This document shows positions 5,117 to 45,783 of a DNA stretch of 64,000 bases, piece after piece. The DNA lies in assembly GCF_058153355.1 (NCBI RefSeq), contig NZ_CM177019.1. The stretch is one strand, 5' to 3'. The notes beneath the pieces are model-generated. The model made no database searches. It worked only from the letters and a program-made list of their open reading frames with translations, and was not told where the DNA came from. Both the position numbers and the translations under genes were made by a program. How positions within the stretch are numbered: position 1 is the first letter of the stretch; every line of letters starts with the position of its first letter.

Positions 5117-5149
5117 GCCTGATAAGACGCTCGCTGCGTTTTATCAGGC
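5117..5149. terminator. Hairpin between convergent dtpD and phr (gcctgataa ... ttatcaggc), likely bidirectional terminator / REP-like
   Basis: Perfect 9-bp inverted repeat with 15-nt loop located between two convergent stops. Confidence 0.5.
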
Positions 5150-6562
5150 TCCTTTCCTCGCTTCTTCGTACGCTGCCAGCGTTCGCAGCCTTGCCTCTTT
5201 GTGATCAACTATCGGTTGCGGATAATCCAGCGTCACACCTGCTTTCTGCGCCCACTTCCACGGTTCATGCACCGCTTTCCCTGGTACATCACGCAACTCT
5301 GGTAACCACTGGCGGATAAACTCACCTTCGTGGTCAAATTTCTCGCCCTGAGTTGTCGGGTTGAAAATACGGAAATACGGTGCAGCATCAGTTCCAGTAG
5401 AAGCCGCCCATTGCCAGCCACCGTTATTGGCTGCCAAATCACCATCAATCAGTTGCGACATGAAATATCGCTCGCCTTCCCGCCAGTCGATCAGCAAATC
5501 TTTCACCAGAAAACTGGCAGTAATCATCCGCAGGCGATTATGCATCCAGCCAGCGCTGTTAAGCTGACGCATGGCCGCATCAACAATCGGGTATCCCGTT
5601 TTGCCTTCCTGCCAGGCCTTTAAATGCGCGGGATTGCTTTGCCACTGTACGCGATCGGTCCAGGCAATAAAGGGGCGATGCTTACACAGTGACGGGTGAT
5701 ACGTCATCAAATGACGGTAGAACTCGCGCCAGATCAGCTCATTAAGCCAGACGCTACCCGGTCCGCCTTCCAGCGCCTGCGGCTGTTCCGCCAACAGGCG
5801 ATGCAGACACTGGCGAGGCGATAACCTACCCGTTGCAAGGCTTGCAGACAAACGGCTGGTGCCTTCCACTGCCGGAAAATCACGCTGCTGATCGTACTGA
5901 CTCGCACCGTTCTGGCAAAACTGGCGTAATTGCGCAATCGCCGCTTTTTCTTCCACCGGGAAATGCGCGGTATCGAAAGACTGACGAGGGTAATTCAGCG
6001 TAATAGATGGCGCGGGATCTAATGATCCGCTACTCCGAACTTTTGGCGCAGCGACGCACTCCGGCATCCCTTCCCGCAGCCGTTTCAGCCAGGCATTCTT
6101 AAAAGGCGTAAAGACTTTGTACATCTCATGATTGCCAGTCATCACCGCCCCCGGCGGCAGGATCACGCTGTCATCGAACCCTTCACACACCACGTTACTC
6201 AGCGCTCTTTCAACTTCCACATCCCGCGCCCGCTCATTCACCTCATACTGATAGTTATAAAACAGATGGGTAACACGATTTTCCGCGCACACCTGTTTAA
6301 CTATTTCGACGCTGGCGGCAAAGTCATCCACTTCATGAAACAGCAAAGGAATGCCTTTTTCCGCCAGCGCGATTTGTAGCCCGTTCAGTTGTGCATTGAT
6401 AAATTCAGCCTGACGCGGCGACATATTATGCGCCGCCCACTGGCGTGGTGTAGCGATATACAACGCCAGCACGCGTGCAGACGAATAGCGGCAAGCGGCC
6501 GCCAGCGCGAGATTATCATGCAGACGTAAATCCTGGCGAAACCAGACCAGATGGGTAGTCAT
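5144..6562 (-). CDS. phr: Deoxyribodipyrimidine photolyase
   Basis: 472-aa ORF with C-terminal FAD-binding region (WQWAASTGTDAAPYFRIFNP). Confidence 0.9.
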   Translation of the reverse strand: MTTHLVWFRQDLRLHDNLALAAACRYSSARVLALYIATPRQWAAHNMSPRQAEFINAQLNGLQIALAEKGIPLLFHEVDDFAASVEIVKQVCAENRVTHLFYNYQYEVNERARDVEVERALSNVVCEGFDDSVILPPGAVMTGNHEMYKVFTPFKNAWLKRLREGMPECVAAPKVRSSGSLDPAPSITLNYPRQSFDTAHFPVEEKAAIAQLRQFCQNGASQYDQQRDFPAVEGTSRLSASLATGRLSPRQCLHRLLAEQPQALEGGPGSVWLNELIWREFYRHLMTYHPSLCKHRPFIAWTDRVQWQSNPAHLKAWQEGKTGYPIVDAAMRQLNSAGWMHNRLRMITASFLVKDLLIDWREGERYFMSQLIDGDLAANNGGWQWAASTGTDAAPYFRIFNPTTQGEKFDHEGEFIRQWLPELRDVPGKAVHEPWKWAQKAGVTLDYPQPIVDHKEARLRTLAAYEEARKGA

Positions 6563-7113
6563 AAAACTCCTGCATGGCGCAAGTTAATCACCCGCGGCCA
6601 AAGTTCGAAATAACGCTGCTCTGAAAGCCAGGCGTCAGGATAAAGCGCCATATAGTGTTTGATACGCATCAGCGGCGCAAGAAGCGGTTGCTCGCCACGG
6701 CGATAACTGTCGATAAGCGCCGCCAGCTGCTGGCGTTCTGTGGAATCAATATGTGGGCGAAAATAACCCTGAACGTGCATCAAAACGTTGGTGTGATCGC
6801 GCGGGTTGGCGGGATGAGAAAGCAAAACAATGACGCGTTGGCGGTACTGGTTGTAATAGTCATCCAGATTTTGCCACTGGTGAATATCAGCCACAAACGG
6901 GCCAAGTTTGCGGTATTCCGGCTGGGAATGAGCCAGAAAGACGAGTTTATAGCGGCTGTGATAATCGTTGAGCGCCCCGCGCGTTAAGCCATGTTCTTTC
7001 AGTCGATGTAACTCATAAAGCGCGAAGATACGGATTAAAGTGCTTTCATCAAATCGTTGCTGATTCATTACTGCTCCTGAACGGTTTACAGGAGTAAGTG
7101 TAGACGTTGGCAA
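6559..7113 (-). CDS. ybgA: DUF1722 protein YbgA (co-transcribed with phr)
   Basis: ORF whose stop overlaps phr start by 4 bp; true start may be an internal ATG (K-12 protein is shorter than the 184-aa maximal ORF). Confidence 0.7.
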   Translation of the reverse strand: MPTSTLTPVNRSGAVMNQQRFDESTLIRIFALYELHRLKEHGLTRGALNDYHSRYKLVFLAHSQPEYRKLGPFVADIHQWQNLDDYYNQYRQRVIVLLSHPANPRDHTNVLMHVQGYFRPHIDSTERQQLAALIDSYRRGEQPLLAPLMRIKHYMALYPDAWLSEQRYFELWPRVINLRHAGVL

Positions 7114-7128
7114 ATGATGTTTGTGAAG

Positions 7129-7986
7129 TTAATCCTGTTGTAGCAGGGCAAGATTACGAAAGCACGCTCCCCGCAAGGACTGACGCCAGGTAGTTTCTGT
7201 CCATGGCTGCCCTTTCCATTCACACGTGAAATCAATAAGTTCATCAGGGACATCGCAAACAATGTGAAGACGGATTTCTTCTCTGCCGTGACTCTTTTCA
7301 CTAATTGCGTAACTGTCATGCTCTGGATTATTTAATTCTTTCAGTGAGAATTTTTCCTCAAAGGCTTTATTTAGCCGCCCCTGGTTTCCTTTTACAGCGA
7401 ATAAATAATCACCTCCCTGTTTTTGTATCTTCTCTGCAATATCTTTCTGGCAACCCATCGCATCAGTTGTGATGATTTTTCCTTTAATATCCAGCATGTT
7501 AAGAAGTTCAGGGATAGCTGTAATTTCATTTGATTTCTCATCCGTCCTGATCTGTCCGATGACCAGACTGTGCATTGTTGAGAACGCACTAATGACATGA
7601 ATCGCTCCCCTGCAGCGACTCTTGTCATAAGAATGCCGGAGCTTTTTTCCATCAATTGCAATGACGTCTTTATCATCTGAAGAATGGCAGTCACGCATCC
7701 AGTTAATAAAGCACTCGTGAAATTTTGCAGGACTGATACAGGATACAACTCTGGCAATGGTATCGTGAACAGGAATACCATTTTCAAAATCACCCTATTG
7801 CTTCAAAAAATCGAGATGTGTTTCCCCAAAATCCTCTATATCTTCTCAACCTTCTGCACCCGAAATAACGGCGCAAATAGTCAACAGTAGAATATCCGAT
7901 AATTTATGTTCCACTTTCCAGGCTTGTCTGTAATCGGGGATAATAGAAATATGTTCCATCAATTTTTTAAGTACCATTTTGTTCTC
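7129..7986 (-). pseudogene. Decayed H-repeat (ISAs1-family) transposase: frameshifted and internally deleted
   Basis: N-terminus [43 protein letters not shown] then stop; body in two overlapping frames (7392-7793 and 7129-7698); the canonical C-terminal peptide [12 protein letters not shown] appears out of frame after ...EWKG, indicating an internal deletion. Confidence 0.8.
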
Positions 7987-8370
7987 CTTAATTATGTAAG
8001 GAGTATTTGATCATGTATAAGCAATAAAAAACAGCTTCAGGTAATGAGGAATATCTCAATTTTTAAACATAAAATGCGAATTGTTTAGTACAAAAAAGCA
8101 GCGTTACGTGATCTTTTCCTGCCATGGGTCTTTACCACAGCAGCTGGGGTTGTTTGGGACCGACTTCCGACAGCAGATCCCGGTGAGCCTGCCACCATCT
8201 CTTCACAAGCTTATGCTTATTACATGCAAAACGTCCCGTTTTGCATCTTTGTGCCTACGGCACACGATGATCTTTCCCTGAGGAGTCATACTTTGTTAGG
8301 ATAAAAAACCTTTAAATAGCTTTCCTACCTTCCAATAAAAACCACAGAATCAGCAATGTTTAAATTTCAA

Positions 8371-9192
8371 TCAGTATTGAGTTTCATTTGTGATCTCTAC
8401 ATTCACTCCTGATGGCTTCTCGCTAAATAAATATCTCATACTCTCATTCTCCATAATCACGGATATATTTAACCCTCCATGAATCCATTGATATGTAATA
8501 TTTTTATCATCAATCTTATAACTAAAATTCCCAATTGGTAACTTTTCCTTCAGATAATTATTCTCCTCATAACTAAGTGCTAGTAATTTATCATAGGCAC
8601 CTTTTAAATCAAAACCCTCAAAATAGCAATGTTCTTTTGATGAACCATCAAATTCTTTTCTGGGATTAGCATCATGACACCAAGTCGACCATTTTTCTTT
8701 TTTTTCCTCAGAAGTATGTTTTTTTTCATTGAAAAACAGCACATAATATTTCTCTGGGATTATTATCTGATCATTAATTTTTAAGATATCTCTATATGGC
8801 CCAGGACATTTATGAACAGAATCCATAATGGATATTTCTTCAGGAAAAAGTTTGCCTTCATGTTTAAATAATTTCCTGTACATACCAACTGTTGTTTGTG
8901 ATAAGTAATATGACAAGGGCTTTTTTTTAACTTCAACATAGTCAGTCGAGCATACGAGACTATTTTCCAATGAATAATCATTTATCGTTAGCTTTCGCCC
9001 ATCCATATTTATCACTACCTTACTGTATGTTTCATCAAGGGCACTTATTATAAGCGAATCATGTTTACCAAAAACATCGATATCTGAAACATTATGATAA
9101 ATCCATACGGTATTTTTAGTATTATCATTAGAATATGCGATACCATGAATAAAAAAAATCATTAGAAAGCCCATAAAAAATTTACCGCGCAT
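8371..9192 (-). CDS. Secreted (signal-peptide) protein of unknown function; candidate immunity protein for the upstream effector
   Basis: 273-aa ORF, N-terminal hydrophobic signal peptide (MRGKFFMGFLMIFFIHGIAYS), very AT-rich and K/N/E-rich; AAGGA ribosome-binding site; starts 19 bp after the effector stop. Confidence 0.6.
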   Translation of the reverse strand: MRGKFFMGFLMIFFIHGIAYSNDNTKNTVWIYHNVSDIDVFGKHDSLIISALDETYSKVVINMDGRKLTINDYSLENSLVCSTDYVEVKKKPLSYYLSQTTVGMYRKLFKHEGKLFPEEISIMDSVHKCPGPYRDILKINDQIIIPEKYYVLFFNEKKHTSEEKKEKWSTWCHDANPRKEFDGSSKEHCYFEGFDLKGAYDKLLALSYEENNYLKEKLPIGNFSYKIDDKNITYQWIHGGLNISVIMENESMRYLFSEKPSGVNVEITNETQY

Positions 9193-9211
9193 ACAAATTC
9201 CTTAATGTAAA

Positions 9212-11977
9212 TCAATGTGATGAATCATAAACATTATTCAAAAATAGATTTTGTTCTTTTCGGCGTCGTATAACAAGGCCAGCAACTCCGCCATTTGTAA
9301 TATCAAGAAATTCATTGGAGGCACCTATATAATCCTTTTGATTAAGTTTAGAATTCAAATTCGGTGCCTTACTCATGCTCCCCATATTAAACAATAAACT
9401 TATTAACGCATCAAATTCGTACTGATATAAATCCACACTCACTGTTCTTTTAAGCTCACTAACAAAACCAGATAAACGCTCTTCAAATAACTCATCAGCT
9501 TTAGCAATTGTTATTCCATGCTGAAATTCTTCTGGTAAAACTATATCATTGCAACGTTGTGTAGCAATTAAATGTCCATAACCTATAGTACAGTAACCTT
9601 CTGAATCATTATATGCTGTTAGTTGTAAATATTCCCATTCTTTTATAAAACCCTTACCTTTATTTGATACATTCAAATCTGCAATGGCGATCCTTTCAGC
9701 AGTTTGTTCTTCGTTAAAACTATTGATGTACCCCTCCATCAATATATCAATTGGATCATGTAAATCATCCCGTCTATAAAATGGAGGTATTTGTGTATTA
9801 TTCGGCGGAGGCGCTCCATTGTTTCCTGGATAGTATTCAAAATGCAACATATAAACCACTTCTTCCCCAGGGATTATAACTGGAGGCCTCCCTGTATCAG
9901 GTTTAATCATCAACCCTGTTTTGGCAATTATTGCCCCTTGCATAATATGATCATTAATCTTTACTAAAATACTTGATGGATCAACTTCACCATACCGCAC
10001 ATAGAAATGCCGACCATCTCTAGTCGAGTGCTCAATCGTAACTTGCCAAGTACCGTAATAGTATCGAGAAATAGCTCTTACTATTCCGTTGCAAACCGAA
10101 ACAATATCAGACTTCGGTTCCGTATATAGATCACGCGCTCCATGTTTTCTATTACCATTATTACGATTTCGTCCAAATATAGCTTGAGAGGCATTTCGAT
10201 CTGTCAAGGCAGCAGCCCAAAAATAATTTTTCCACTTTCCATTTTTGTCATTATTAGGTTTTACTTTTAAAGGAAAAATAATTTGATTTGATTTTTTCTG
10301 AGATAATGAATCTAAAAACACAACCGGATGAAAATGCCACACAGCATCATCACTATTAAACGGAGATACCCCGCTCATCCACTCCAGATCCAGCTGCCAC
10401 TTCTCACAGTATGCCACTTCCTCTGTATCCAGATCTTTATAAAATCCTTCCCACCGCCCTGTCGAGCGCCCTCCGTACCATTCGCTGTGGTGTTTAACTA
10501 TCAGATGATTCACCACATTTCTCACCAGTGGTTCACGCACGATCAGCGCCTGTCTGATCTCTTCCTCCGTCACTTTTCCATCACCGTCCTGATCCATACC
10601 CGCCATCAGCTCACGATAAAAGGGCGGTACCTGCTCATACAGCCACTCATCTCCCTGTTCTGCGGCACGGCTTATTGAGTCAAACGCTTCCGGCACCCAT
10701 CCTTCGTACGGGCTGTACGTCATGTCACCGCTGCTGTTCTCCTCCAGCGGTTGAAAACCCAGCTTCAGTAAATCATACTGTCCGGCCTCTTCAACATCCT
10801 TTTGTGGCAGCCAGCCGGTTCCGGTGATATTAAACCACCACTGCTGCGATTCATCCGTGACTGGTGTCGTGGCTTCCCGCGGAAGAACGCGCTGAGCACC
10901 CAGCGTGGCTGCGGTTGCGGTAAATACCTCCTGTCCCGGAACGGCCTGCCGGGTGTATAAAATTATCCCTTTTGGTGCCAGAACAGTCCGTTTTTCTCCC
11001 TTAACGCCTGCCGGGTTGGATAAGAACTTTGGCATATTCGGGTCTGTACTCAGAACCTCCAGATGGACGAACCACTCGCGCTCAATCTCACCGCTTCCCT
11101 CGCCAGGATAATCCTCGCATCCCATAAATCCGACCGGTGTTCCGGCACTGACTTTCCACTCTTCCGTTTCGTCGACCGTCTGTACCGAGTCAAAAATGCC
11201 TTTTGCCTTCGCCTTCTGCATCCACTCAGGCATCAGCATCTGTATTTCGCCATCTGACTCCATCAGATCCGGATCCAGGGTCACCCAGTACTGCTCATTC
11301 CCCGGTTTATTGCCTTCCAGCAGGCGAACCAGTCCGAATGTCGTCAGGACCGGCTGGCCGTTATTGGTCACGTAAAAACGTCCGGTCCGGGATGACACAA
11401 ACCGATCTCCCGCATTAAGTGTCCTGTTTCCGCTGATTTTCGGGGGTATCCAGTACGTGGCATGATCTCCGCTTTCCTGCCCCTCGGGAAGGCCGTTCTT
11501 TCCCGGGATGTATCGGTGCAGCAATATGCCACCATGCCCGGTTTTAACTTTATAGCAGGGGGAGCCGGGATAATCGTTCACCGGGGCCAGATGCATATAG
11601 AGACAGTAAAATTCCAGCCAGCTTTCTTTTTTTTGCGGGTCTGGCTGGCACTGCGATTTCACCAGAACAAATGTGCTGCTGTAACGGAGTTGCTGCCCTT
11701 TGTAGGGGCCTTTCAGGTAATCATTATTTATCCGGTACGCCGCAATGGTGCCATCGGCCATAAACTGAAGAGGAACCGGTTCTCCGGTAGCGGCGGTATC
11801 CGGTTTCAGGGCTGATAACGGATTAGACACGTCACTGATATGTATCCCGCCGTGCCACAGCCCGTTTCCACCCAGCAGCCAGGTTCCGTGCGCTTCTTTG
11901 TCAATAAGCCGCATTATCTCATCCAGTGAGCGAAACTCTTTGCCTTCTTTATCCCTGATGGGATGGCTGATTTTCAT
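9212..11977 (-). CDS. Candidate T6SS cargo effector: multidomain peptidoglycan hydrolase (M23/LytM-like domain plus C-terminal T4-lysozyme-like GH24 domain), with an EF-hand-like loop
   Basis: 921-aa ORF starting 9 bp after the vgrG stop with an AAGGA ribosome-binding site; C-terminus carries the phage-lysozyme signature EWEYLQLTAYNDSEGYCTIGYGHL; middle region has KHGARD (HxxxD) ... YMLHFEY (M23-like); DQDGDGKVTEEE calcium-binding-type loop. Confidence 0.7.
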   Translation of the reverse strand: MKISHPIRDKEGKEFRSLDEIMRLIDKEAHGTWLLGGNGLWHGGIHISDVSNPLSALKPDTAATGEPVPLQFMADGTIAAYRINNDYLKGPYKGQQLRYSSTFVLVKSQCQPDPQKKESWLEFYCLYMHLAPVNDYPGSPCYKVKTGHGGILLHRYIPGKNGLPEGQESGDHATYWIPPKISGNRTLNAGDRFVSSRTGRFYVTNNGQPVLTTFGLVRLLEGNKPGNEQYWVTLDPDLMESDGEIQMLMPEWMQKAKAKGIFDSVQTVDETEEWKVSAGTPVGFMGCEDYPGEGSGEIEREWFVHLEVLSTDPNMPKFLSNPAGVKGEKRTVLAPKGIILYTRQAVPGQEVFTATAATLGAQRVLPREATTPVTDESQQWWFNITGTGWLPQKDVEEAGQYDLLKLGFQPLEENSSGDMTYSPYEGWVPEAFDSISRAAEQGDEWLYEQVPPFYRELMAGMDQDGDGKVTEEEIRQALIVREPLVRNVVNHLIVKHHSEWYGGRSTGRWEGFYKDLDTEEVAYCEKWQLDLEWMSGVSPFNSDDAVWHFHPVVFLDSLSQKKSNQIIFPLKVKPNNDKNGKWKNYFWAAALTDRNASQAIFGRNRNNGNRKHGARDLYTEPKSDIVSVCNGIVRAISRYYYGTWQVTIEHSTRDGRHFYVRYGEVDPSSILVKINDHIMQGAIIAKTGLMIKPDTGRPPVIIPGEEVVYMLHFEYYPGNNGAPPPNNTQIPPFYRRDDLHDPIDILMEGYINSFNEEQTAERIAIADLNVSNKGKGFIKEWEYLQLTAYNDSEGYCTIGYGHLIATQRCNDIVLPEEFQHGITIAKADELFEERLSGFVSELKRTVSVDLYQYEFDALISLLFNMGSMSKAPNLNSKLNQKDYIGASNEFLDITNGGVAGLVIRRRKEQNLFLNNVYDSSH

Positions 11978-11986
11978 GTTCAGTCC

Positions 11987-14186
11987 TTATCGTGAGAATC
12001 TTCCCGGCCGTTGTGGCGGTACCTTATCCTGCTGGGGAGGATCAAAGGCTTCCTGTACACTTTTCCGTGGTGGCTCCGCCCCTTCAGTTCCAGGTCCGCC
12101 ATTGTCATAATCTGCCAGCGCTTTCAAAACCGCCGGTCGTAGCGTCGGCACCGGCGTTCCCGGACTACCGCCGCTATTGAGATTGATTTTCGGCCCGACG
12201 ATGTCCACGCCCCCTGAATGGATGACCACAAACGAACCACCCACCTTTAGGGTGATTTTACCGCCACTCTCCAGTACGATTTCATTCCGGACCTTCATTC
12301 CCAGCGCACCGGTAATCTTCCTCGCCAGGTCGCCCTTCACCTCCAGACTGTGCTTTCCCTCCACCAGGCTGATATGGTTCCCCGTCGTCTTATGCTCCTG
12401 CTTCCCTTCCACCGTCACTTTACGGTCGTTTCTGACATACAGGCCGTCATCGTGACTCACGCTCACCGTCCGGTCATTCGTCACCTTCAGCGTCTGGTCA
12501 TTACGTACCGTTATGCGCCGGTCGTTCGCCACCGTGATACTCTGGTCGTGACCCCCTTCTTTTCTGGTGCCGACCTCAACCGTCTGCCCCTTCACCACCC
12601 TTATCTTCTGGTCGTTACCGATGGTCTCCGTATGGTCATGCTTCACGTCCGTCGTCCGGTCGTTAAGCACCTCCGTGTCCATGTTCTTCTGCGCGTGGAT
12701 ATACACCTGCTCACTGTCCGTCGCATCCTCGAAACGCAGTTCATTAAAGCCGCTTCCTTTATAGGTCTTCGAGCGGATGGTCATCTGCGTCCGCGTGCCC
12801 GGTAAATCCCCCGGTGAACGGTTATCTTCATGGTAGGTCCGCCCCGTCACAATGGGCTGGTCCGGGTCGCCGTTCAGAAAGTCCACTATCACTTCCTGAC
12901 CCACACGCGGTATCGCCAGATTGCCGAACCCCGGTCCCGCCCATGCCTGCGACACCCGTATCCAGCACGAACTCTCCTCCGTCATCCCGTGATAACGGTC
13001 CCAGTGAAACTTCACCCGTACCCGGCCATGCTCGTCGCAGAATATCTCCTCACCCTTCGGCCCGGTCACGATGGCACTCTGCGGGCCGTCCACCTTCGGC
13101 TTCGGCAGCGGCGCGTGACGCCACGTCCTGTCTGCCGGTATCACCTCAAACTGATTGCTCAGTGTCGTCCCTTCACCGTGACTCCCGTGCAGCGCCTGCG
13201 GCTGTTCTCCCCGCAGTGTGCTTCCCACAACCTGCCATTCCCGGTTCAGCGTCTCTGAGGGATGGCCCGTCAGCCGGAACCGCGTTCCCGGCCACAGCCG
13301 CGCCGTGTTACACACCCCGCTCGCCGTCTCCGCCCCGTTCCGCCACCCTTCCGTCTGGTAACGCGCAAAATCCTGGCCATGCTGCTCATCCTTGAAACGC
13401 CCCGGATAATCAAATATCTCGTACTGCGTTCCCTGCCCGTTCAGGCTCTCCCCGTCATGGCTGTAGTACCCCGGCCACCCCGGCGTTTTGAACGTATAAT
13501 CCTGCGTCTCCACCGACGCCACGCTTATCTGCGCACGGTAACGAAACTCACTGATGTACTCCGTCGTTCCCCCGGTCGTGGTATTCGGGTTAAACGCCAG
13601 CGCCCCCATTCCCGTCAGCCCCGCCACGTCATCACACACCGCCAGCTTCTGCTCCGGCCCTTCCTGACCGCAGCGCTCATAAAAGAAGATACCTTCCTCC
13701 GCCCACAGCCGGGTCAGGAATGCCAGGTCGCTCTCCCCGTACTGCACGCAGAACTCCCGCGCCGGGTGCGCCTCATAGAACAGCGGCATCCACGCCGTCA
13801 CCCCGTTCTCTCTCAGAAGCTGTGCTGATATCGTCTGAATGTCCTGCTGCTGGAAGATACGGAAGTTCTGCCGTAACCCTGCCCGCCACAGCGGCGGGCT
13901 GATGCTCAGGGAATAACGCATCTGCCAGTCGTTGTTCTCACCGAGCTGCACCTCCGTCACGATACCGCTGACGTAACGCTGCGGGATATCACCCTGCCAG
14001 ACCGTCAGCACCGCGCTCTTCTCCAGAAAATCCTCCGCCATCAGGTCGGACAGCCCGCTGGCGATATCCACATCCAGGATGAACGACGTGCAGTGGTGCT
14101 GGTACAGACGGAAGCTCACCACCGCCGTCGCCATCTCCACGATACCGTCCACCGACAGCGTGAAACGTAATCCTTCTGAGGACATA
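11987..14186 (-). CDS. vgrG: Type VI secretion spike protein VgrG (gp27/gp5-like)
   Basis: About 733 aa from MSSEGLRFTL; characteristic VgrG N-terminus, gp5-like beta-helix repeats (VTVxNDRxxTV...) and Pro-rich C-terminal tail; the maximal ORF extends 11 codons further upstream. Confidence 0.85.
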
Positions 14187-14360
14187 TAAACCCCATAGCT
14201 ACCGCACTCATGGTGCAAACCATACGGGCTTATAAGAAAGGCTTAAGTGAGATATCTGCCAGATAGCAACTATTAGGAAAATATTTATATATATTTCATG
14301 AATATATATTTCGGTTGGTATAACGGTGTCTAAATATTCCTCTGAACATCTTCCTGATAC

Positions 14361-15024: not shown

Positions 15025-16697
15025 TGGCTGCGCAAGGGTTCTTACTGATTGCCACGTTTTTACTGGTATTAATGGTACTGTCGCGTCCTTTAGGCAGCGG
15101 GCTGGCGCGGCTGATTAATGACATACCTCTTCCCGGTACAGCGGGCGTTGAGCGCGTACTTTTTCGTTTACCTGGCGTCTCTGACCGTGAGATGAACTGG
15201 AAGCAGTATCTCTGTGCCATTCTCGGCCTGAACATGCTGGGGCTGGCAGTGCTGTTTTTTATGTTGCTCGGTCAGCACTATCTGCCGCTTAACCCGCAGC
15301 AACTGCCGGGGCTGTCGTGGGATCTGGCGCTGAATACCGCCGTCAGCTTTGTCACGAATACCAACTGGCAATCTTACAGCGGTGAAACCACATTAAGCTA
15401 TTTCAGCCAGATGGTGGGCTTAACGGTACAAAACTTTCTTTCTGCCGCCAGCGGGATTGCGGTGATTTTTGCCCTCATCCGTGCATTTACCCGCCAGAGC
15501 ATGAGCACACTCGGGAATGCCTGGGTCGATCTGCTACGCATCACGTTATGGGTGCTAGTCCCTGTGGCGTTGTTGATCGCACTGTTTTTTATTCAACAAG
15601 GTGCGCTGCAAAACTTTCTGCCCTATCAGGCGGTGAATACCGTTGAAGGAGCGCAACAGCTGTTACCCATGGGGCCTGTAGCTTCTCAGGAAGCGATCAA
15701 GATGCTCGGTACTAACGGCGGTGGCTTCTTTAATGCCAACTCGTCGCATCCGTTTGAAAACCCAACCGCACTGACCAACTTCGTGCAGATGCTGGCGATT
15801 TTCTTGATCCCAACAGCGCTGTGCTTTGCCTTTGGTGAAGTGGCAGGCGATCGCCGCCAGGGGCGCATGTTGCTGTGGGCGATGTCAGTGATTTTTGTCA
15901 TCTGCGTAGGCGTGGTGATGTGGGCAGAAGTTCAGGGTAATCCTCATCTGCTGGCGCTGGGTGCGGACAGCAGCATCAATATGGAAGGTAAAGAGAGCCG
16001 TTTCGGCGTGCTGGTCAGTAGCCTGTTTGCGGTCGTGACTACAGCGGCTTCCTGTGGCGCGGTGATTGCGATGCATGATTCGTTTACCGCTCTCGGCGGC
16101 ATGGTGCCGATGTGGCTGATGCAAATTGGTGAAGTGGTGTTCGGCGGTGTCGGTTCTGGTCTTTACGGCATGATGCTGTTTGTCCTGCTGGCGGTGTTTA
16201 TTGCTGGGCTGATGATTGGTCGTACGCCGGAATATCTGGGTAAAAAAATCGACGTACGCGAGATGAAACTGACCGCACTGGCGATTCTGGTCACTCCAAC
16301 GCTGGTACTGATGGGCGCAGCACTGGCGATGATGACCGACGCCGGACGTAGCGCCATGCTCAACCCTGGCCCGCATGGTTTTAGCGAAGTGCTGTACGCC
16401 GTGTCATCCGCCGCTAACAACAACGGCAGCGCCTTTGCCGGATTAAGCGCCAACTCTCCGTTCTGGAACTGTTTACTGGCGTTCTGCATGTTTGTCGGTC
16501 GCTTCGGGGTGATTATCCCGGTAATGGCAATTGCCGGTTCGCTGGTGAGTAAAAAGAGCCAACCCGCCAGCTCCGGCACGCTGCCAACGCACGGCCCGCT
16601 GTTTGTTGGCCTGTTAATCGGCACCGTGTTGCTGGTTGGCGCACTGACCTTTATCCCTGCCCTGGCGCTTGGTCCGGTGGCGGAATATCTCTCCTGA
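15024..16697 (+). CDS. kdpA: Potassium-transporting ATPase subunit A
   Basis: 557 aa from [12 protein letters not shown]...; the six-frame ORF over-extends upstream. Confidence 0.9.
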
Positions 16698-28343: not shown

Positions 28344-28394
28344 TTTGAATTCCCTTGAGCTATTCAGTTTGTTGGCAAAGTACTCGTTGTTCAT

Positions 28395-28493
28395 GCCGGA
28401 TGCGGCGTGAACGCCTTATCCGTCCTACAAAATAGTGCAAATTCAATATATTGCACCATCCTCGTAGGCCTGATGAACGTAGCGTATCAGGCT
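28395..28493. repeat. REP/BIME cluster (two inverted REP units)
   Basis: gccggatgcggcgtgaacgccttatccg..cctac and gtaggcctgatgaacgtagcgtatcaggc. Confidence 0.8.
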
Positions 28494-37696: not shown

Positions 37697-37780
37697 GTTG
37701 GATGCGACGCTTAAGCGTCTTATCCAACCTGGACTGAGCTTTTGTAGGCCTGATAAGACGCGTCATGCGTCGCATCAGGC
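37697..37780. repeat. REP/BIME cluster between glnS and nagE
   Basis: Two inverted REP units (gttggatgcgacgcttaagcgtcttatccaacc; gtaggcctgataagacgcgtcatgcgtcgcatcaggc). Confidence 0.8.
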
Positions 37781-37790
37781 ATGAAGCAGA

Positions 37791-39737: not shown

Positions 39738-40069
39738 CTTATTCCCCCTACGAGAACCCTATTTGGCTCGTTTAAAGCCGTATTTTTATTTTGCTGCAAA
39801 TTGTACTGCCGATGTTCTGTAATCAGATTGTTAGATCATCTGCTACAGAGTGTGTGAAAATTTAATTCGTATCGCAAATTAAACGCGTGTCTTTTGTGAG
39901 TTTTGTCACCAAATATCGTTATCATCACTCCCTTTTACTGGCTAAACCAGAAAACTTATTTTATCATTCAAAAAATCAGGTCGGATTGACGCCTGTCTGC
40001 GCAAATCCAGGTTACGCTTAAAGATGCCTAATCCGCCAACGGCTTACATTTTACTTACTGAGGTGAATA
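39738..40069. promoter_or_regulatory. Divergent nagE / nagBACD promoter region (NagC and CRP sites expected)
   Basis: 332-bp AT-rich intergenic region between divergently oriented operons; individual sites not resolved by eye. Confidence 0.5.
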
Positions 40070-42078
<2,009 letters not shown>

Positions 42079-42086
42079 GAGAAAGT

Positions 42087-43307
42087 ATGACACCAGGCGG
42101 ACAAGCTCAGATAGGTAATGTTGATCTCGTAAAACAGCTTAACAGCGCGGCGGTTTATCGCCTGATTGACCAGTATGGGCCAATCTCGCGGATTCAGATT
42201 GCCGAGCAAAGCCAGCTTGCCCCCGCCAGCGTAACAAAAATTACGCGTCAGCTTATCGAACGCGGGCTGATTAAAGAAGTTGATCAGCAGGCCTCCACCG
42301 GGGGCCGCCGCGCTATCTCTATCGTCACCGAAACCCGCAATTTCCACGCAATCGGCGTACGGCTTGGTCGTCACGACGCCACCATCACCCTGTTTGATCT
42401 CAGCAGCAAAGTGCTGGCAGAAGAACATTACCCGCTGCCAGAACGTACCCAGCAGACGCTGGAACATGCCCTGCTGAATGCCATTGCTCAGTTTATTGAT
42501 AGCTACCAGCGCAAACTGCGCGAGCTGATCGCCATTTCCGTGATCCTGCCAGGGCTTGTTGACCCGGACAGCGGCAAAATTCATTACATGCCGCATATTC
42601 AGGTGGAAAACTGGGGACTGGTAGAAGCACTGGAAGAGCGTTTTAAAGTGACCTGTTTCGTCGGTCACGATATCCGTAGTCTGGCACTGGCAGAGCACTA
42701 CTTCGGTGCAAGTCAGGATTGCGAAGATTCCATTCTGGTGCGTGTCCATCGCGGGACCGGGGCCGGGATTATCTCTAATGGGCGCATTTTTATCGGCCGC
42801 AACGGCAACGTCGGTGAAATTGGCCATATTCAGGTCGAACCGCTGGGTGAACGCTGCCACTGCGGCAACTTTGGCTGCCTGGAAACTATCGCCGCCAACG
42901 CTGCCATTGAACAACGGGTGTTGAATCTGTTAAAGCAGGGCTACCAGAGCCGTGTGCCACTGGACGACTGCACCATCAAAACTATCTGCAAAGCCGCGAA
43001 CAAAGGCGATAGCCTGGCGTCGGAAGTGATTGAGTATGTCGGTCGTCATCTGGGCAAAACCATCGCCATTGCTATCAACTTATTTAATCCGCAAAAAATT
43101 GTTATTGCCGGTGAAATCACCGAAGCCGATAAAGTGCTGCTCCCTGCTATTGAAAGCTGCATTAATACCCAGGCGCTGAAGGCGTTTCGTACTAATCTGC
43201 CGGTGGTACGTTCTGAGCTGGATCACCGCTCGGCAATCGGCGCTTTTGCGCTGGTAAAACGCGCCATGCTCAACGGTATTTTGCTCCAGCATTTGCTGGA
43301 AAATTAA
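42087..43307 (+). CDS. nagC: ROK-family transcriptional repressor NagC
   Basis: 406 aa; N-terminal helix-turn-helix and ROK domain with CxCGxxGC. Confidence 0.9.
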   Translation: MTPGGQAQIGNVDLVKQLNSAAVYRLIDQYGPISRIQIAEQSQLAPASVTKITRQLIERGLIKEVDQQASTGGRRAISIVTETRNFHAIGVRLGRHDATITLFDLSSKVLAEEHYPLPERTQQTLEHALLNAIAQFIDSYQRKLRELIAISVILPGLVDPDSGKIHYMPHIQVENWGLVEALEERFKVTCFVGHDIRSLALAEHYFGASQDCEDSILVRVHRGTGAGIISNGRIFIGRNGNVGEIGHIQVEPLGERCHCGNFGCLETIAANAAIEQRVLNLLKQGYQSRVPLDDCTIKTICKAANKGDSLASEVIEYVGRHLGKTIAIAINLFNPQKIVIAGEITEADKVLLPAIESCINTQALKAFRTNLPVVRSELDHRSAIGAFALVKRAMLNGILLQHLLEN

Positions 43308-45407: not shown

Positions 45408-45783
45408 CATGCCTGCAATCTGGGAAACCGGGGTAGAAAAAAACTTGCAGGCCATAACAGTATCTACGCAGCTCCTGCAATATATTGAATTTTCATGCTT
45501 TTGTAGGCAGGATAAGGCGTTCACGCCGCATCCGGCATGAACAAATCGCACTTTGTCAGCAATTTGGCCCCCGTAAAATATAACCATTTAATAAAACCCG
45601 CTAAAAATTATCGATTCATCAATAAATACATCCTCACACCAGACCTTTTTTCACCAATCGACAATCACCATTACGTTTTTTATTCCCCCCCTGCCAAATC
45701 GCTTGCGCACAGTGCTGCTTTGCGGCATTTTTTTAAACAAGCAAACACAACAAGCAACAAATACCAGGTTAACGGAGAAGGTT

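Follow-up and report, generated by a model that had tools for sequence, protein, structure and literature searches.

The minus-strand element at positions 7144–8121 of the window, by which we mean the whole 64-kb stretch of DNA analysed, is most probably (a probability of about 0.88) a non-functional H-repeat of the ISAs1 family (ISEc1/ISEc5 type), which is orthologous to ybfD and forms the ybgA-proximal border of the hypervariable ybfA–ybgA (rhsC) locus. The window has the order pxpABC-ybgI-dtpD-phr-ybgA, H-repeat, 273-aa ORF, 921-aa protein, VgrG, ybfA and kdpFABC. The element is incapable of encoding a transposase, and we infer that it has no enzymatic activity and remains in place as the fixed border of a hot spot for cassette exchange.

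Identity and extent of the H-repeat

The minus-strand ORF fragments belong to an ISAs1/H-repeat transposase. Pfam assigned PF13808 (DDE_Tnp_1_assoc) to 7846–7977 (E = 7.9e-12) and PF01609 (DDE_Tnp_1) to the 189-aa piece at 7129–7698 (E = 7.9e-17), and the NCBIfam model NF033564 ("ISAs1 family transposase"), computed on the transposase frame with its two stops masked, gave 285 bits against a cutoff of 70 over profile positions 1–229 of 314. In BLASTP, the frame running from 7977 to 7129 aligned without a gap to residues 1–256 of the intact 378-aa YdcC (ISEc5-type), with 246/256 residues identical (96%), and blastn gave nucleotide identities to the intact ydcC element of 96.5% over nt 1–1075 and 97% over nt 1387–1453; a match of this kind is far beyond chance. 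A single H-repeat copy was found in the window by blastn. The first-pass annotation of this DNA had proposed a decayed H-repeat (ISAs1-family) transposase, a reading that would fall if alignment to intact ISAs1/H-repeat ORFs found the fragments to be unrelated; we have run this alignment, the fragments are related to YdcC, and the family assignment is borne out by the two Pfam domains, NF033564 and the YdcC alignment together.

The ISAs1 family is characterized by terminal inverted repeats starting with CAGGG at both ends, as given in the ISfinder descriptions. On the basis of blastn, multiple alignment and the end sequences, the canonical H-repeat was placed at 7144–8121 (minus strand), and both of its termini are retained: the left end CAGGAAAAGATCAC at 8121 and the right end CAGGGCAAGATTACG reading inward from 7144, each starting with CAGGG. 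Homology to intact elements spans 7144 to 8280, and a second copy of the left terminus, CAGGGAAAGATCATC, is found at 8280; the ends at 7144, 8121 and 8280 agree with those of the ydcC, O55:H7 and K-12 copies. The element is therefore larger than the interval 7129–7986 first given for it, since it reaches 8121 with both inverted repeats and an appended block of 159 bp extends to 8280. In domain order (a PF13808-type domain followed by PF01609), in the NCBIfam equivalog and in its terminal repeats it is an ISAs1 element, and it differs from a complete one, which has a length of about 1.3 kb, an uninterrupted ORF of about 378 aa and a full DDE domain: its 978 bp correspond to about 1289 bp less an internal deletion of 311 bp, and two in-frame stops interrupt the frame. 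The window copy is thus a remnant and not an active member of the family.

Comparison of the flanks (...CCTGTTGTAG|7144, 8121|CCATGGGTC and 8280|AGGAGTCATA) gave no matching 8–10-bp repeat around either 7144–8121 or 7144–8280. Because neither unit has a target-site duplication, the original insertion event cannot be reconstructed.

Reading frame and lesions

The conceptual transposase frame (7129–7977, minus strand), which was defined by three-frame translation, BLASTP, Pfam and NCBIfam, starts from an ATG at 7977 with the RBS AAGGAG upstream, and consists of 256 transposase codons followed by 26 out-of-frame codons that run beyond the IS end to a TAA at 7131–7129. The first nonsense codon is at 7846–7848 (minus strand), where alignment of the copies shows a change of Trp44 from TGG to TGA; codon 44 is TGG in K-12 ybfD, ybfL and ydcC, in the ybfD copies of N96 and R32_14_1F, in O55:H7 ISEc1 and in an ISEc5 copy, which confirms the premature stop after about 43 codons that had been noticed initially. 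The second is at 7795–7797 (minus strand), where translation and the same alignment show Tyr61 changed to TAG; this codon is TAT or TAC (Tyr) in all other copies compared. Both stops (W44* and Y61*) are private to the lineage of the window among these copies.

The frameshift that the first-pass annotation placed between the frames 7392–7793 and 7129–7698 is absent: three-frame translation and the gap-free protein alignment to YdcC residues 1–256 leave a single frame from 7977 to 7129, and what had been read as a frameshift is the second in-frame stop, which had been missed. The 133-aa ORF at 7392–7793 (minus strand) lies in an alternative frame outside the transposase and matched no Pfam family. 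All the copies examined, whether intact or deleted, have this alternative frame open, with a length of 136 aa, or 121 aa in ATCC 8739.

The internal deletion, by contrast with the frameshift, was read correctly. Its junction, located by blastn and alignment at 7208–7210 (minus strand), lies directly after ...EWKG with a 2-bp GC microhomology, and 311 bp corresponding to ISEc5 nt 1076–1386 (residues 257–360) are missing. As 311 is not divisible by three, the canonical C-terminal peptide follows in another frame; this relic, recognised by translation and comparison with the C-terminus of intact YdcC, occupies 7154–7204 (minus strand) with an ATG at 7204, and its frame differs from that of the N-terminal part. 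The DDE_Tnp_1 match covers profile positions 3–139 of 200 in the window copy and in K-12 YbfD, compared with 3–200 of 200 in intact copies, and the C-terminal third of the catalytic domain has thus gone. Judging from the motif, the lost segment includes the HVEN motif region (...NHWHVENKLHW...), which should carry the catalytic glutamate.

Age and spread of the lesions

The first-pass annotation had also called for comparison of the junction across strains. We found that the deletion junction is identical in the window copy and in the ybfD copies of K-12, N96 and R32_14_1F, and the IS-to-ybgA flank is also common to those ybfD copies aligned across it. When complete E. coli genomes were counted as covered if at least 80% of 6950–7330 was matched (the interval spanning ybgA, the IS end and the deletion junction), 3091 of the 5426 genomes (~57%) were covered, and all the fully covered rows sampled matched 6950–7330 as one piece. 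The deletion is accordingly an old and common allele and not a decay of this genome. The word "decayed" in the initial description therefore holds in that the element is dead, and does not hold for the deletion, which was inherited; only the two stops are private to the lineage.

The closest allele is the R32_14_1F ybfD (98.7%), which has the private substitutions V2 and C252 of the window and neither of the stops; the stops are therefore recent. A different stop, at codon 254, is found in K-12 ybfD. Lineage-specific nonsynonymous and synonymous changes numbered 5:4 plus the two stops for the window, 12:8 for K-12 and 4:2 for N96, i.e., about 1.6 nonsynonymous per synonymous change over the ybfD alleles, with small counts, and by a rough estimate the three stops across these alleles would be near the neutral expectation. 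Pairwise dN/dS among the ybfD alleles was 0.18–0.25, again on small counts, which could point to some earlier constraint, or to gene conversion by functional copies, in place of pure neutral decay. The substitution pattern would fit either relaxed constraint with older divergence dating from an active period or homogenisation by gene conversion, and stops short of proving neutrality.

These data bear on the possibility that a truncated YbfD-type ORF has been domesticated, e.g., as an inhibitor or regulator of transposition, and is still expressed, through stop-codon readthrough or through initiation at the internal ATG at 7698, which would give the 189-aa product. The RBS and ATG of the window copy are intact, the 189-aa ORF is open, and the low pairwise dN/dS and the persistence of an open frame despite the old deletion (through the deletion in R32_14_1F, and over 253–266 codons in K-12 and N96) would fit such a role. 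However, two independent nonsense codons have arisen in the N-terminal domain of the window copy and another stop in K-12, lineage-specific changes are mostly nonsynonymous with a number of stops that is roughly neutral, and the low dN/dS is explicable by inheritance from the active era or by gene conversion; furthermore, the 189-aa product would have neither the N-terminal domain nor the last catalytic residue. We consider domestication very unlikely.

It may also be asked whether the two stops are sequencing or assembly errors in a copy of the common ybfD allele, since both are single-base substitutions that none of the other copies compared has. Finished assemblies, however, seldom contain substitution errors; further private substitutions of both the synonymous and the nonsynonymous kind are present in the copy, as expected of real divergence, and across the whole window the divergence from each complete E. 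coli genome is at least 1.6–2%. We regard such errors as extremely improbable, and take the stops as genuine.

The ybfA–ybgA locus

The conserved flank of the H-repeat consists of ybgA (DUF1722; 6559–7068, minus strand) followed by phr (5144–6562, minus strand), and the right end of the IS is 75 bp upstream of the ybgA ATG. In K-12 the corresponding interval is ybfA-rhsC-ybfB-ybfO-ybfC-ybfQ-ybfL-ybfD-ybgA-phr, in which ybfQ, ybfL and ybfD are three tandem H-repeats. Window positions 8101–6900 are colinear with the K-12 sequence at 738 kb with one 1-nt gap, and point substitutions are the only differences from K-12 in GAATGGAAAGGGCAGCCATGG, which spans the deletion, and in the IS-to-ybgA flank; because the ybgA junction and the deletion junction are the same, we treat the window copy as the orthologue of ybfD. 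Homology to K-12 on the other side ends at 14217, 45 bp upstream of the rhsC ATG, and resumes at 8101/8121, which is the left end of the H-repeat.

The ybfA...ybgA interval is the region b0699–b0706, which is among the Rhs loci of laboratory strains (PMC3032704), and the window has an H-repeat at the downstream end of this recognised locus. The Rhs element itself, with a large core ORF, YD repeats and a variable C-terminal tip, was not found: tblastn of K-12 RhsC against the whole 64-kb window gave no match, and Pfam and NCBIfam gave no RHS domain in the 921-aa, 743-aa and 273-aa ORFs. Since no Rhs core is present in the 64-kb window, the term "Rhs-type element" is here a statement of position only. 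The same interval contains an RHS core gene and an intact ISEc1 in O55:H7; an RHS gene, the group II intron E.c.I9 and ybfD in R32_14_1F; and tssI, a pyocin-type module, an H-repeat fragment, a truncated copy of the window's effector, E.c.I9 and ybfD in N96. RHS genes or vgrG cassettes thus occupy this interval in other strains, and the vgrG module of the window occupies a known Rhs hot spot. The initial proposal that this module sits in a remodelled Rhs locus is therefore upheld as to position, through the synteny with the K-12 rhsC edge, and goes no further than position because no Rhs core has survived. An Rhs gene may once have been present in this lineage, or Rhs and VgrG cassettes may simply be alternative occupants of the site.

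An independent ISAs1 insertion, unrelated to Rhs history and lying beside the vgrG cassette by coincidence, would agree with the lack of an Rhs core in the window and of a target-site duplication, and H-repeats do occur away from Rhs genes in some genomes. Against such a coincidence, the ybgA flank and the deletion junction match the last RhsC H-repeat, K-12 ybfD, base for base, RHS genes are present in the same interval of O55:H7 and R32_14_1F, and it is the R32_14_1F ybfD that is most similar to the window copy. We regard a coincidental insertion as extremely improbable, and retain the assignment to the rhsC locus.

We also considered the O55:H7 ISEc1 as the undeleted ancestor at the same site and rejected it, because its spacer to ybgA differs and is longer (~110 nt). 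Since O55:H7 has its intact ISEc1 in the equivalent place behind a different spacer, the order of insertion and deletion given below is tentative.

A consensus scan for a promoter of ybgA-phr or a terminator supplied by the IS end found the sequence no richer in sites than shuffled sequence, with zero sites on the minus strand of 7069–7300. Between the right end of the IS and the ybgA ATG (7068) there is a 7-bp inverted repeat, CTCCTG TAAACCGT TCAGGAG, at 7075–7095 (minus strand), which is conserved in K-12 and O55:H7.

The neighbouring VgrG–effector cassette

The cassette consisting of VgrG, the effector and the 273-aa ORF (8371–14218, minus strand), delimited by Pfam, NCBIfam and the breakpoints of K-12 homology, occupies the place of rhsC...ybfL in K-12. 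Its components, all on the minus strand, are VgrG (11987–14218; Pfam, NCBIfam), the 921-aa protein (9212–11977; Pfam, NCBIfam), in which a Peptidase_M23-like region, an EF-hand and a C-terminal phage-lysozyme domain were found, and the 273-aa ORF (8371–9192), which has an N-terminal hydrophobic signal-like segment, has no family match and may encode an immunity protein. Any part of the DNA of 8371–11977 was found in only 3 of the 5426 complete E. coli genomes and the complete effector gene in 0 of 5426, and none of the 5426 carries the full arrangement of the window.

N96 and MFDS1022581 both have the effector gene cut off at one identical base, where it is joined to an internally deleted H-repeat fragment that is likewise the same in the two strains. 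The fusion is at the rhsC locus (ybfA–ybgA; 15690–15790 of the extract) in N96 and at the rhsA locus (yibF–yibH; 8488–8588 of the extract) in MFDS1022581, and its window equivalents are ~10843 (codon ~378 of the 921-aa effector) and 7374–7394/7705. The same junction at two Rhs loci means that one junction has moved between loci or strains.

The best identity of nagABC (window 40000–43000) among the 5426 complete E. coli genomes was 98.4%, and identity to K-12 was ~93–95% towards phr-ybgA/dtpD and ~96.5% towards kdp; these values suggest that the source genome belongs to a divergent Escherichia lineage. Three short segments of the window (28393–28474, 45464–45538 and 37744–37782) are ~87–97% similar to the phr–dtpD intergenic region of K-12, and are probably repeats of the REP/BIME type.

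A group II intron fragment at the left end

The block at 8122–8280 might be taken as a tandem duplication of the left end of the IS, and this candidate was rejected: it consists of a 5' fragment of the group II intron E.c.I9 and a 15-nt copy of the IS terminus. The fragment (8122–8265, minus strand; Rfam and alignment) corresponds to about nt 1–144 of the intron. Window 8265–8119 is 96.6% identical to nt 1–147 of the ATCC 8739 E.c.I9, whose reference coordinates were taken from the supplement of Leclercq and Cordaux (2012; PMC3522654), and RF01999, a group II intron domain-I family, matched on the minus strand with 42.9 bits (gathering score 36); the Rfam alignment continues to 8079 with low posterior probability, and the real homology ends at about 8122. 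The fragment has the 5' features of E.c.I9, namely a GUGYG start (GTGTGCC at 8265) and domain I. Neither an RF00029 match for domains V/VI nor ltrA homology for the maturase was obtained in this part of the window; both are present in N96, and the full-length intron (1887 nt, 96%) with ltrA was found in N96 and R32_14_1F.

E.c.I9 inserts 15 nt inside the left end of the H-repeat. In the window the homing site (CAGGAAAAGATCACG^TAACGC; 8106–8107, minus strand), identified from the junction sequences, is empty (8107^8106); a full intron occupies it in N96 and R32_14_1F, and ATCC 8739 has its equivalent site occupied as well. The outer second copy of the left terminus (8266–8280, minus strand) is the 5' exon of the intron fragment. 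Given the empty homing site and this outer terminus, the 159-bp block is composed of a 15-nt 5' exon and ~144 nt of intron, lying outside a complete left end. As a speculation, it could have originated when an H-repeat inserted into an intron-bearing copy and the two IS bodies then recombined.

The relic is of a kind already described: E.c.I2 and E.c.I9 target "Rhs IS (=ISEc1-5)", and E.c.I9 fragments of 159 bp and 193 bp "in a Rhs region" are catalogued in the supplement of the same study (PMC3522654). Full-text literature searches for H-rpt together with group II intron gave no match, and the targeting statement was found in PMC3522654. The fragment at 8122–8280 is present in 2549 of the 5426 complete E. 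coli genomes, and was unannotated in the sampled rows spanning it.

At the ydcC locus of NZ_LT883142.1 (~2939–2973 of the extract) we observed another partial IS terminus, CAGGGAAAGATCA directly before CAGGGAAAGATCATCGTGTG, upstream of the intron fragment; as read from the alignment, the 13–15-nt terminus is reiterated there.

A possible history and its meaning

A history that would account for these features starts with the arrival of an H-repeat at the downstream end of an effector island. The old 311-bp deletion would then have removed residues 257–360 and frameshifted the tail, with this allele becoming common in E. coli, and W44* and Y61* would have arisen later in the divergent Escherichia lineage. 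Homologous recombination, with homology in the H-repeat at one end and on the ybfA side at the other, may have replaced the cargo. The 159 bp beyond the left end are the relic of a past invasion by E.c.I9, which homes into this IS. Having both terminal repeats undamaged, the element might conceivably be mobilised in trans by an intact copy.

Because the cargo varies while the H-repeat and ybgA stay fixed, and the breakpoints fall at the left end of the H-repeat and at the rhsC/vgrG start, the likeliest role of the H-repeat is passive: on the breakpoints in a handful of strains, it would act as repeated homology that bounds the replacement of cassettes by recombination. More tentatively, H-repeats in general might serve as portable homology through which T6SS effector cassettes of the Rhs or VgrG type are exchanged, truncated or moved between the classical Rhs loci, and the ybfD relic might be the anchor that keeps the ybfA–ybgA swap point. 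The breakpoints at 8101/8121 and the effector/H-repeat junction shared by the N96 rhsC and MFDS1022581 rhsA loci are hints in this direction; we hold this wider idea as possible but somewhat doubtful.

All the parts are of described kinds (the H-rpt/ISEc1-5 of Rhs elements, a ybfD allele and E.c.I9 fragments) and thus already known, and the element has little importance on its own; its main value is for annotation. It can be recorded as a ybfD-type ISAs1 pseudogene with two nonsense codons, the common 311-bp deletion and no frameshift, with an unannotated fragment of the group II intron E.c.I9 ahead of it. This also fixes the genomic address of the VgrG–effector cassette as the classical rhsC hot spot, a single site, with the same dead IS as its border, in which toxin cassettes of the Rhs or the VgrG type serve as alternative cargo.

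Comparison with known systems

The nearest known counterpart is K-12 ybfD (b0706), the last of the three tandem RhsC H-repeats, which has the same position upstream of ybgA-phr, the same flank and deletion junction, and the same truncated domain content as the window copy (PF13808 and positions 3–139 of PF01609). The two differ in their stops, W44* and Y61* in the window and that at codon 254 in K-12, and in the left end, which in the window is complete to 8121 and followed by the intron-fragment block, whereas homology to K-12 reaches only 8101, inside the left end, where the K-12 copy abuts the end of ybfL, the tandem copy that precedes it; the upstream cargo is vgrG and its effector in the window and rhsC in K-12. 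ISEc1/ISEc5 (ydcC, and the O55:H7 copy beside ybgA) share with the window copy the terminal repeats (CAGGG...), the ORF start and the RBS, with 96–97% nucleotide identity to its retained parts, and their intact copies code for a 378-aa transposase whose DDE domain is complete, whereas the window copy is without 311 bp and has the two stops.

The block appended at the left end of the H-repeat has the length of E.c.I9-tr2 (159 bp; Leclercq and Cordaux, 2012; PMC3522654), and in comparison with the full E.c.I9 intron it retains only the first ~144 nt, without the maturase gene and domains V/VI. In contrast to Rhs elements, the window has no Rhs core (YD-repeat) gene, and its effector is VgrG-adjacent and of the M23/lysozyme type. 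With the Rhs elements and VgrG-linked T6SS effector islands of Enterobacteriaceae it nevertheless shares the hot spot b0699–b0706 and the layout, in which a large toxin gene is followed by a small downstream ORF and then by the H-repeat.
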